Made by a program: the position numbers. Shown piece after piece: positions 1 through 3,000 of a DNA stretch of 64,000 nt (its first letter is position 1; each line of letters opens with the position of its first letter). The stretch lies in NCBI RefSeq assembly GCF_055900595.2, contig NZ_CM148325.1; one strand, 5' to 3'.

Positions 1-3000
1 GTGGCTGGTCATCCTCTCAGACCAGCTAGGGATCGTCGCCTAGGTGAGCCGTTACCCCACCTACTAGCTAATCCCATCTGGGCACATCCGATGGCAAGAG
101 GCCCGAAGGTCCCCCTCTTTGGTCTTGCGACGTTATGCGGTATTAGCTACCGTTTCCAGTAGTTATCCCCCTCCATCAGGCAGTTTCCCAGACATTACTC
201 ACCCGTCCGCCACTCGTCAGCGAATCAGCAAGCTGATTCCTGTTACCGTTCGACTTGCATGTGTTAGGCCTGCCGCCAGCGTTCAATCTGAGCCATGATC
301 AAACTCTTCAATTTAAAAGTTTGATGCTCAAAGAATTAAACTTCGTAATGAATTACGTGTTCACTCTTGAGACTTGGTATTCATTTTTCGTCTTGCGACG
401 TTAAGAATCCGTATCTTCGAGTGCCCACACAGATTGTCTGATAAATTGTTAAAGAGCAGTGCCGCTTCGCTTTTTCTCAGCGGCGCGGGGTGTGCATAAT
501 ACGCTTTCCCGCTACAGAGTCAAGCATTTATTTTTGCTTTCTCTGCCGAAGTTCTCAGGAGAACTCCGCTGACCCGGCGGCGTGTTTGCCGTTGTTCCGT
601 GTCAGTGGTGGCGCATTATAGGGAGTTATTCCGGCCTGACAAGAGGAAATTTAAAATAATTTTCCGACCGCGCATTTTTTCAGCAAAAGCCCCGTTAATG
701 TGCCATAAAACAAGCAATTTGCCGTTTTTGCAACCGTAATCACACTTCCTGGTGGCATACTAAGGAGGAATAAAAAGAAAAAGGAAGATTAGTAATGCCT
801 TTAAGCGCACAACAGTTAGCTGCACAGAAAAACCTTTCGTATGTTCTGGCTGAGAAGCTGGCGCAACGGATCTTAAAAGGTGAATATGAACCCGGCACCA
901 TTTTGCCTGGTGAGATTGAGCTGGGCGAGCAATTTGGAGTGAGTCGTACAGCGGTACGCGAAGCGGTTAAAACGTTAACGGCAAAAGGGATGGTTTTACC
1001 GCGACCACGAATTGGTACCCGGGTCATGCCACAATCAAACTGGAATTTTCTTGATCAGGAATTGCTTACCTGGTGGATGACAGAAGAGAACTTTCATCAG
1101 GTCATCGATCACTTTCTGGTTATGCGTATCTGTCTGGAGCCGCAAGCTTGCCTACTGGCTGCAACGGTTGGCACCGCGGAACAGAAGGCGCATCTCAATA
1201 CGTTAATGGCCGAAATGGTGGCATTAAAAGAGAACTTTCGCCGTGAACGCTGGATTGAGGTCGATATGGCCTGGCATGAGCATATCTATGAAATGAGCGC
1301 CAATCCGTTTTTGACCTCATTCGCCTCGCTCTTCCATTCGGTTTATCACACTTACTTCACGTCAATTACCAGCGACACAGTGATAAAGCTGGATCTGCAC
1401 CAGGCGATTGTTGATGCGATTATCCAAAGCGATGGCGACGCGGCATTTAAAGCTTGTCAGGCGCTGCTACGCTCACCTGATAAGTGACACCCCGATAACA
1501 GGACATTGAATGAGCGATAAAAAGAAGCGCAGTATGGCGGGTTTGCCGTGGATCGCGGCGATGGCCTTCTTCATGCAGGCACTTGATGCCACTATTCTGA
1601 ATACCGCCTTACCCGCAATCGCTCATAGCCTTAATCGTTCTCCTCTCGCGATGCAATCAGCCATCATCAGTTACACGCTGACGGTGGCGATGCTTATTCC
1701 GGTAAGCGGATGGCTAGCCGATCGCTTCGGTACGCGTCGCATATTTACCCTTGCCGTGAGTCTGTTCACATTGGGTTCTCTGGCCTGCGCACTTTCTAAC
1801 TCGCTACCACAGCTGGTTGTCTTCCGGGTTATTCAGGGGATAGGTGGCGCAATGATGATGCCTGTTGCTCGGCTGGCCTTACTGCGTGCTTATCCTCGTA
1901 ATGAGCTTCTTCCTGTATTGAATTTTGTCGCCATGCCGGGTCTGGTGGGGCCAATTTTAGGCCCCGTACTTGGCGGCGTGCTGGTCACCTGGGCAACCTG
2001 GCACTGGATATTTTTAATCAATATCCCCATAGGTATTGCCGGCCTTCTTTACGCGCGCAAACATATGCCCAATTTCACCACCGCACGACGCAGATTCGAT
2101 ATCACTGGCTTTTTGCTGTTTGGCCTCAGCCTTGTTCTCTTCTCAAGCGGAATAGAGCTCTTCGGTGAAAAGATTGTCGCCAGTTGGATTGCCTTGACGG
2201 TAATTGTCACCAGCATCGGGTTACTGCTTCTCTATATTCTCCATGCACGACGCACGCTAAACCCATTAATTTCATTAGATTTATTTAAAACCCGCACTTT
2301 CTCGATCGGTATAGTAGGCAATATTGCAACCCGTCTGGGGACCGGCTGTGTACCGTTCCTTATGCCATTGATGTTACAGGTAGGATTTGGTTATCAGGCG
2401 TTTATTGCCGGCTGTATGATGGCACCGACAGCGTTAGGTTCCATTATTGCAAAATCGATGGTTACCCAAGTCTTACGTCGTCTGGGCTATCGCCATACGT
2501 TAGTGGGGATCACGGTAATTATTGGGCTAATGATCGCTCAGTTCTCTTTGCAATCACCAGCAATGGCGATATGGATGCTGATCTTGCCGTTGTTTATATT
2601 AGGGATGGCTATGTCGACGCAATTTACCGCGATGAATACCATCACACTTGCCGATCTGACCGATGACAACGCCAGCAGCGGTAACAGTGTTCTGGCGGTC
2701 ACGCAGCAACTGTCTATCAGTTTAGGCGTTGCTGTAAGTGCGGCCGTCCTTCGCGTTTATGAAGGGATGGAAGGCACAACGACTGTCGAACAATTCCACT
2801 ATACGTTTATCACAATGGGCATTATTACTGTTGCTTCAGCAGCAATGTTCATGCTTCTGAAAACAACCGATGGTAATAATTTGATCAAAAGACAGCGTAA
2901 ATCTAAGCCGAACCGCGTTCCATCAGAATCGGAGTAAGTTGTAATCGTTGTTGCTGAAGGGTCGGTTGGGTTATCCGATGGATGAGTACATCAATCGCCA

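Follow-up and report, generated by a model that had tools for sequence, protein, structure and literature searches.

How does a 16S rRNA gene come to carry, at the tip of one of its helices, a hairpin that departs from a K-12 sequence at several bases and is nevertheless perfectly paired? The question arises at the very start of the window, by which we mean the whole stretch of 64,000 nt analysed here (contig NZ_CM148325.1 of assembly GCF_055900595.2). An initial annotation had flagged a perfectly complementary V1 hairpin within 200-260, and had read its differences from a K-12 reference sequence as co-varying changes of the kind seen in genuine rrn operon or strain heterogeneity. Our answer, to which we give a probability of about 0.88, is that the helix 6 (V1) tip in rrnC of an E. 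coli strain here takes the form of a naturally occurring and nearly neutral allele, moved by conversion or recombination among rrn copies.

The gene that holds the hairpin can be placed from its sequence and its neighbours. The bacterial SSU rRNA family of Rfam (RF00177) matches window 1-314 on the minus strand with 236 bits over model positions 1-311 (gathering score 50), and the matched segment is the 5' 314 nt of rrsC, the gene that encodes 16S rRNA in rrnC, cut short by the start of the window. Matching to annotated genomes puts yieP at window 795-1487 on the plus strand, with mdtD/hsrA also adjacent to rrsC; this layout—a divergent yieP, the hsrA/mdtD flank and an rrn leader with its promoters—is the same at rrsC of K-12 MG1655. 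Because the SSU match and the yieP and mdtD/hsrA layout agree with annotated genomes, we take the window to hold the rrnC 5' end of an E. coli strain. Leader and tandem promoters of rrnC occupy 315-642 on the minus strand (positions by string match). Within them, by analogy with E. coli rrn operons in general, we take the -35 to -10 segment at 642-615 to be that of P1, the segment at 523-496 to be P2, and TGCTCTTTAACAA at 458-446 to be a boxA-like element, all on the minus strand.

Upstream of the gene, 486 nt of the window differ from K-12 rrnC by five substitutions, at window 468, 549, 565, 665 and 790. The substitution at 665 sits just upstream of the rrnC P1 -35 element, and those at 549 and 565 fall between P1 and P2. 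The genome nearest to the window, E400634, carries the window's bases at all five positions and differs from it in this upstream region only at 546; being common to both genomes, the five substitutions do not belong to the V1 event. The rrnC upstream region of AR_0077, a strain that recurs below, has an indel relative to the window, and a site-by-site comparison of the two, thrown out of register by it, was set aside.

The transcribed strand of the rrsC fragment contains GGUAACAGGAAUCAGCUUGCUGAUUCGCUGACGAGUGG, and any window coordinate in the gene equals 315 minus the 16S position. Coordinate mapping, folding and the Rfam consensus place 16S helix 6—the 'spur' that holds V1, at E. coli positions 61-106—at window 209-254 on the minus strand, so that all of the helix falls within the flagged 200-260. 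A repeat search of 190-270 returned a single inverted repeat, with 8-nt arms at 222-229 and 232-239 (GAATCAGC/GCTGATTC) that are 100% complementary and spaced by 2 nt, which bears out the perfect complementarity claimed for this hairpin. The arms are reported as 8 nt because C83 and G86 are also complementary; the hairpin proper, GAAUCAG-CUUG-CUGAUUC (G76-C93), is a perfect 7-bp stem at the helix 6 tip, in which 76-82 pair with 87-93 around the loop C83-U-U-G86. On the minus strand, its 5' arm (G76 A77 A78 U79 C80 A81 G82) occupies window 233-239 and is variable at U79 (236) and C80 (235), while its 3' arm (C87 U88 G89 A90 U91 U92 C93) occupies 222-228 and is variable at G89 (226), A90 (225) and C93 (222). 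Between them, at 229-232, the CUUG tetraloop (83-86) coincides with a 4-nt loop in Rfam and is invariant across all sequences compared.

The Rfam structure line over GAAUCAG-CUUG-CUGAUUC likewise gives 7 pairs and a 4-nt loop, with no non-canonical marks, and the minimum-energy fold of helix 6 agrees with the Rfam consensus structure. Folded in isolation, the 46-nt helix does not stand out in energy from its shuffles (z = -1.15); because that value is uninformative, the support for the helix structure is comparative and comes from covariation.

All seven MG1655 rrs genes were compared with the window fragment, and K-12 itself proves to have three V1 alleles. The K-12 sequence given in the initial annotation, GAAGAAGCTTGCTTCTTTGC, is correct: it is exact in rrsA, rrsB, rrsE and rrsH (V1 hairpin GAAGAAG-CUUG-CUUCUUU), and in those four copies only. 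In rrsG the hairpin reads GAAGCAG-CUUG-CUGCUUC, and in rrsC and rrsD it reads GAAACAG-CUUG-CUGUUUC. Set against the rrsA/B/E/H allele, the window has other bases at 79, 80, 89, 90 and 93: both partners are replaced in two of the pairs (79:90 from G-C to U-A, and 80:89 from A-U to C-G) and one partner in a third (76:93 from G.U to G-C). Relative to the orthologous K-12 rrsC, the difference in V1 is not five bases but a single pair flip, 79:90 from A-U to U-A, and outside V1 only position 226 differs within the 314 nt.

The claim that these changes co-vary with pairing kept holds, and it is carried further by comparison across species and by an allele census within E. coli. For the first, GTDB was scanned at one genome per species with a pattern that left positions 79, 80, 89, 90 and 93 free. 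In 59 of 59 pattern matches 79/80 are complementary to 89/90, in 10 combinations. Among 17 distinct sequences, pairing holds in 99.6% of cells; at 79:90, 6 of them have AU, 6 GC, 3 UA, 1 CG and 1 a mismatch, and at 80:89, 8 have CG, 4 UA, 3 AU, 1 GC and 1 GU. The observed covariation score lay beyond all of 500 shuffles, and when the structure is slid by 1-3 columns only 32-67% of cells stay paired. The covariation at the helix 6 V1 pairs is exceptional.

The same scan was narrow and apparently incomplete, being without the expected K-12-like E. coli and S. enterica LT2 representatives. The TC/GA+C combination of the window was not found outside E. coli among its matches; because expected representatives were missed, this absence is weak evidence, and we do not claim that the allele is E. 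coli-specific. In several Flavobacteriaceae and Winogradskyella (L008, L012, L014, L018-L024 and others) the 46-nt helix 6 is that of E. coli except at the 79/80:89/90 pairs, a striking likeness between phyla in a 'variable' region.

For the census, 81-nt queries differing only in the hairpin were matched exactly against 5,432 complete E. coli records; the unit is a record with at least one copy, not a copy, and related genomes are non-independent. Naming each allele by its 79:90 pair, its 80:89 pair and its base at 93, the commonest is A-U, C-G, C93 (3,570 records), followed by G-C, A-U, U93 (3,434), G-C, C-G, C93 (2,584), G-C, C-G, U93 (1,811) and U-A, C-G, U93 (331). The window allele, U-A, C-G, C93, is present in 241 records (4.4%) and is the rarest of the six paired alleles. 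Mismatched chimeras are rarer by far: G79/A90 occurs in 6 records, U79/U90 in 2 and A79/A90 in none. The one circumstance named at the outset as undermining the reading, an incorrect reference and a common allele, is thus the reverse of what the data give; the reference was right, and the allele is uncommon.

These counts also bear on whether V1 in this assembly is simply wrong, or whether the V1 of another rrn copy was put at rrnC during repeat resolution. A swap by short-read polishing is conceivable, given that rrn operons are repeats of about 5 kb and that V1 lies some 400-500 nt from operon-specific flank; window 1-800 has no identical counterpart in the 5,426 complete E. coli genomes searched, where the nearest hits carry 4 mismatches; and the relative E400634 has in its rrsB a mismatched G79/A90 chimera that could itself be a polishing or assembly artefact. 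Against this, the identical 81-mer is found in 241 other complete records, among them rrnC of AR_0077, and its stem is perfectly paired; the variant is neither unique to this assembly nor structure-breaking. Random errors, moreover, would not yield three changes that jointly keep a perfect stem, mismatched versions being almost absent, and outside the hairpin the window agrees at 99.96% with a separately produced assembly, that of E400634. The allele itself is certainly natural and its sequence real, as had been supposed when operon or strain heterogeneity was preferred to error; its placement at rrnC in this strain is probable, and we regard an artefact of sequencing, assembly or polishing as very unlikely.

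How the allele came to lie in rrnC is best approached through close relatives. Over 44,374 aligned nt E400634 is 99.957% identical to the window; 15 substitutions and one 4-bp indel separate the two. Of these substitutions, three fall within 15 nt, at window 222, 225 and 236 (positions 93, 90 and 79), whereas the other roughly 44 kb hold 12, a background of about 2.7e-4 per nt; the Poisson probability of the V1 cluster is about 1e-8. All seven rrs genes of E400634 were located via annotated regions and then compared. Four of them (rrsA, rrsC, rrsD and rrsE) have G79-C90 with U93, and two (rrsG and rrsH) have U79-A90 with U93. The seventh, rrsB (L069 14130-15671), sets G79 against A90, a mismatched chimera made up of the two alleles that the strain carries in its other copies; either a conversion tract ended inside the hairpin or the chimera is a polishing artefact. 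Heterogeneity within a single genome is thereby shown in K-12, with three V1 alleles among its seven copies, and in E400634, 99.96% identical to the window, with three. C93 is absent from all seven E400634 rrs copies.

A cluster of this kind could in principle have been built in place, by two or three independent substitutions fixed in turn at rrnC with compensation and without any transfer. Compensatory stem evolution by successive mutations is well known, and the change from U93 to C, which turns a G.U pair into G-C, is a single transition that could be a point mutation, C93 being in no E400634 copy. The density of the cluster speaks against such an origin, however, as does the ready supply of U79-A90 elsewhere among the rrn operons of near relatives and in the 241 and 331 records that carry its two forms. 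By base-pairing rules, furthermore, going from G-C or A-U to U-A would need transversions on both sides by way of a mismatched intermediate; since the flip has no wobble intermediate, stepwise origin in place becomes even less likely, and we hold it to be highly improbable.

Movement of the hairpin as a block fits the placement of the alleles better. The exact window allele occurs at rrnC in AR_0077 and at rrnH in MS6198, and its U93 sister occurs at rrnC in WCHEC4533 and at rrnG and rrnH in E400634. The same allele in different operons, different alleles at one operon of near-identical strains, and clustered differences all point to block exchange of the hairpin. On our preferred reading, constraint would act on the 7-bp stem and the CUUG loop, and the identity of the pairs at 79:90 and 80:89 would be free. 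The species holds a pool of at least six paired versions, varying at 79:90 (G-C, A-U, U-A), at 80:89 (A-U, C-G) and at 76:93 (G.U, G-C), and these versions would travel as short blocks among the seven rrn operons, and from strain to strain, through gene conversion or through homologous recombination, in a process of concerted evolution. Such block transfer would explain why one allele is found in different operons and why near-identical strains differ at the hairpin. Exchanges ending between 79 and 90 would produce mismatched chimeras, and as these are very rare, selection or rapid re-conversion presumably removes them.

We infer conversion as the mechanism; it may have run in either direction, and the comparison with E400634 limits how simple the event can have been. 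Because no E400634 copy has C93, a single conversion with a donor of the kind present in E400634 would not yield the window allele; either U93 also changed to C, or the donor was another one, or conversion ran the other way and altered the E400634 lineage. The rrs copies of E400634 vary only at positions 79, 90 and 131, and so offer no markers for the ends of a conversion tract.

The near-neutrality of the window allele is suggested by its distribution and its structure. In ViennaRNA the six natural hairpin alleles share one predicted fold and range from -4.7 to -8.5 kcal/mol, with the window allele at -6.5; mismatched chimera hairpins come to about -2 kcal/mol, a loss of about 4 kcal/mol. A selected role is nonetheless worth weighing, in which the variant would be a functionally specialised rRNA allele that alters ribosome assembly, stability or translation and is kept by selection. 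Changes in variable regions can alter the performance of E. coli 16S (PMC10269663), and the C93 stem is predicted by ViennaRNA to be 1.6-2.9 kcal/mol more stable than that of the U93 sister. On the other side, helix 6 is a spur directed away from the ribosome body, with little sequence conservation and a tolerance for insertions (PMC10269663); the window allele is not tied to one operon, being found in rrnC and rrnH; six alleles with overlapping stabilities coexist; and there is no sign of a new interaction in the sequence. We find specialisation extremely improbable. A bolder version, to which we would give scarcely any credence, is that a helix 6 with U79-A90 and C93 could bear on how 30S subunits assemble or how stable they are, or could tag a subset of the ribosomes, or else that it entered from another enterobacterial species and is spreading by conversion.

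The remainder of the window offers several observations of its own. Its gene order is rrnC, yieP, mdtD, rbs, kup, ravA-viaA, asnA/C, mioC, mnmG-rsmG, atp, glmUS, pst-phoU, tnaCAB, mnmE, yidC, rnpA and rpmH. Window 1-64000 is the last 64,000 nt of the chromosome record and ends just past rpmH, exactly where the E400634 record ends, which is consistent with a chromosome record rotated to start at dnaA; oriC should lie between mioC and mnmG, at about window 16111-16488. The enterobacterial sRNA STnc410 is matched at full length by Rfam at 26679-26836 on the minus strand (184.8 bits), in the atpC-glmU intergenic region as mapped from the E400634 annotation. Between glmS and pstS, at about 30587-35568, lies an lpf-O113 long polar fimbria operon, which we take not to be a K-12 feature; in the intergenic sequence just after it, at 35639, the window is without 4 bp (GACA) relative to E400634. 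After phoU, at about 40932-43316, the E400634 annotation gives genes for a 'type III effector protein', a pentapeptide-repeat protein and one large hypothetical protein, and beside tnaCAB, at about 57220-59390, it gives a ShET2/EspL2-family effector gene that is frameshifted in E400634.

Variation of this kind has a literature, and Martinez-Murcia et al. (1999) reportedly surveyed how V1 and V6 vary among the rrs copies of E. coli. The allele sequence itself, AATCAGCTTGCTGATT, was not found in a full-text literature search. Short rrs segments in which differences are overrepresented, among them compensatory changes that preserve secondary structure, are described as polymorphic between copies of one genome (Espejo & Plaza 2018, PMC6002687). 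The window V1 variant is accordingly one more allele, with its operon placement, of an rRNA polymorphism that is already known, and its significance beyond housekeeping is little. What it does supply is a quantified case of stem pairing kept by selection while the identities of the pairs drift—241-3,570 records for paired alleles against 0-6 for mismatched ones. V1 alleles would appear to hop between rrn operons fast enough to tell apart strains that are 99.96% identical, and they are poor markers of strain relatedness. For amplicon work, V1 variants from one E. coli cell can pass for several 'taxa', and one 'reference' 16S is unrepresentative even for K-12.

Among known hairpins close to that of the window, the U93 sister allele, GAAUCAG-CUUG-CUGAUUU, shares U79-A90 and C80-G89 with it, occurs in the window's closest relatives, and differs by one base, U93 in a G.U closing pair instead of C93 in G-C. 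The K-12 rrsC/rrsD allele, the commonest in the census (3,570 records) and carried by the orthologous operon beside yieP, has the same 7-bp stem, CUUG loop, C80-G89 and G76-C93, but it has A-U at 79:90 where the window has U-A, a flip that amounts to a transversion on both strands. The K-12 rrsA/B/E/H allele keeps the helix geometry and loop of the window but differs in three pairs (79:90, 80:89 and 76:93), and its hairpin is less stable than that of the window by about 1.8 kcal/mol. The loop at 16S 83-86 is said to be the classic CUUG/UUCG/GCAA tetraloop site of Woese, Winker and Gutell (1990); the window belongs with that class in having a CUUG loop on a G82-C87 closing pair, the same in all sequences compared, and departs from it in that the variation lies only in the stem pairs below the loop and not in the loop. 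In how such variants spread, the nearest parallel is the rrs heterogeneity of E. coli and Salmonella, whose segments spread by short-domain conversion (Cilia, Lafay & Christen 1996, via PMC6002687); as recounted in that later paper, it has the short segment, the compensatory changes and the spread by conversion that we propose for the window, and it differs from the present case in no way that amounts to a difference in kind.
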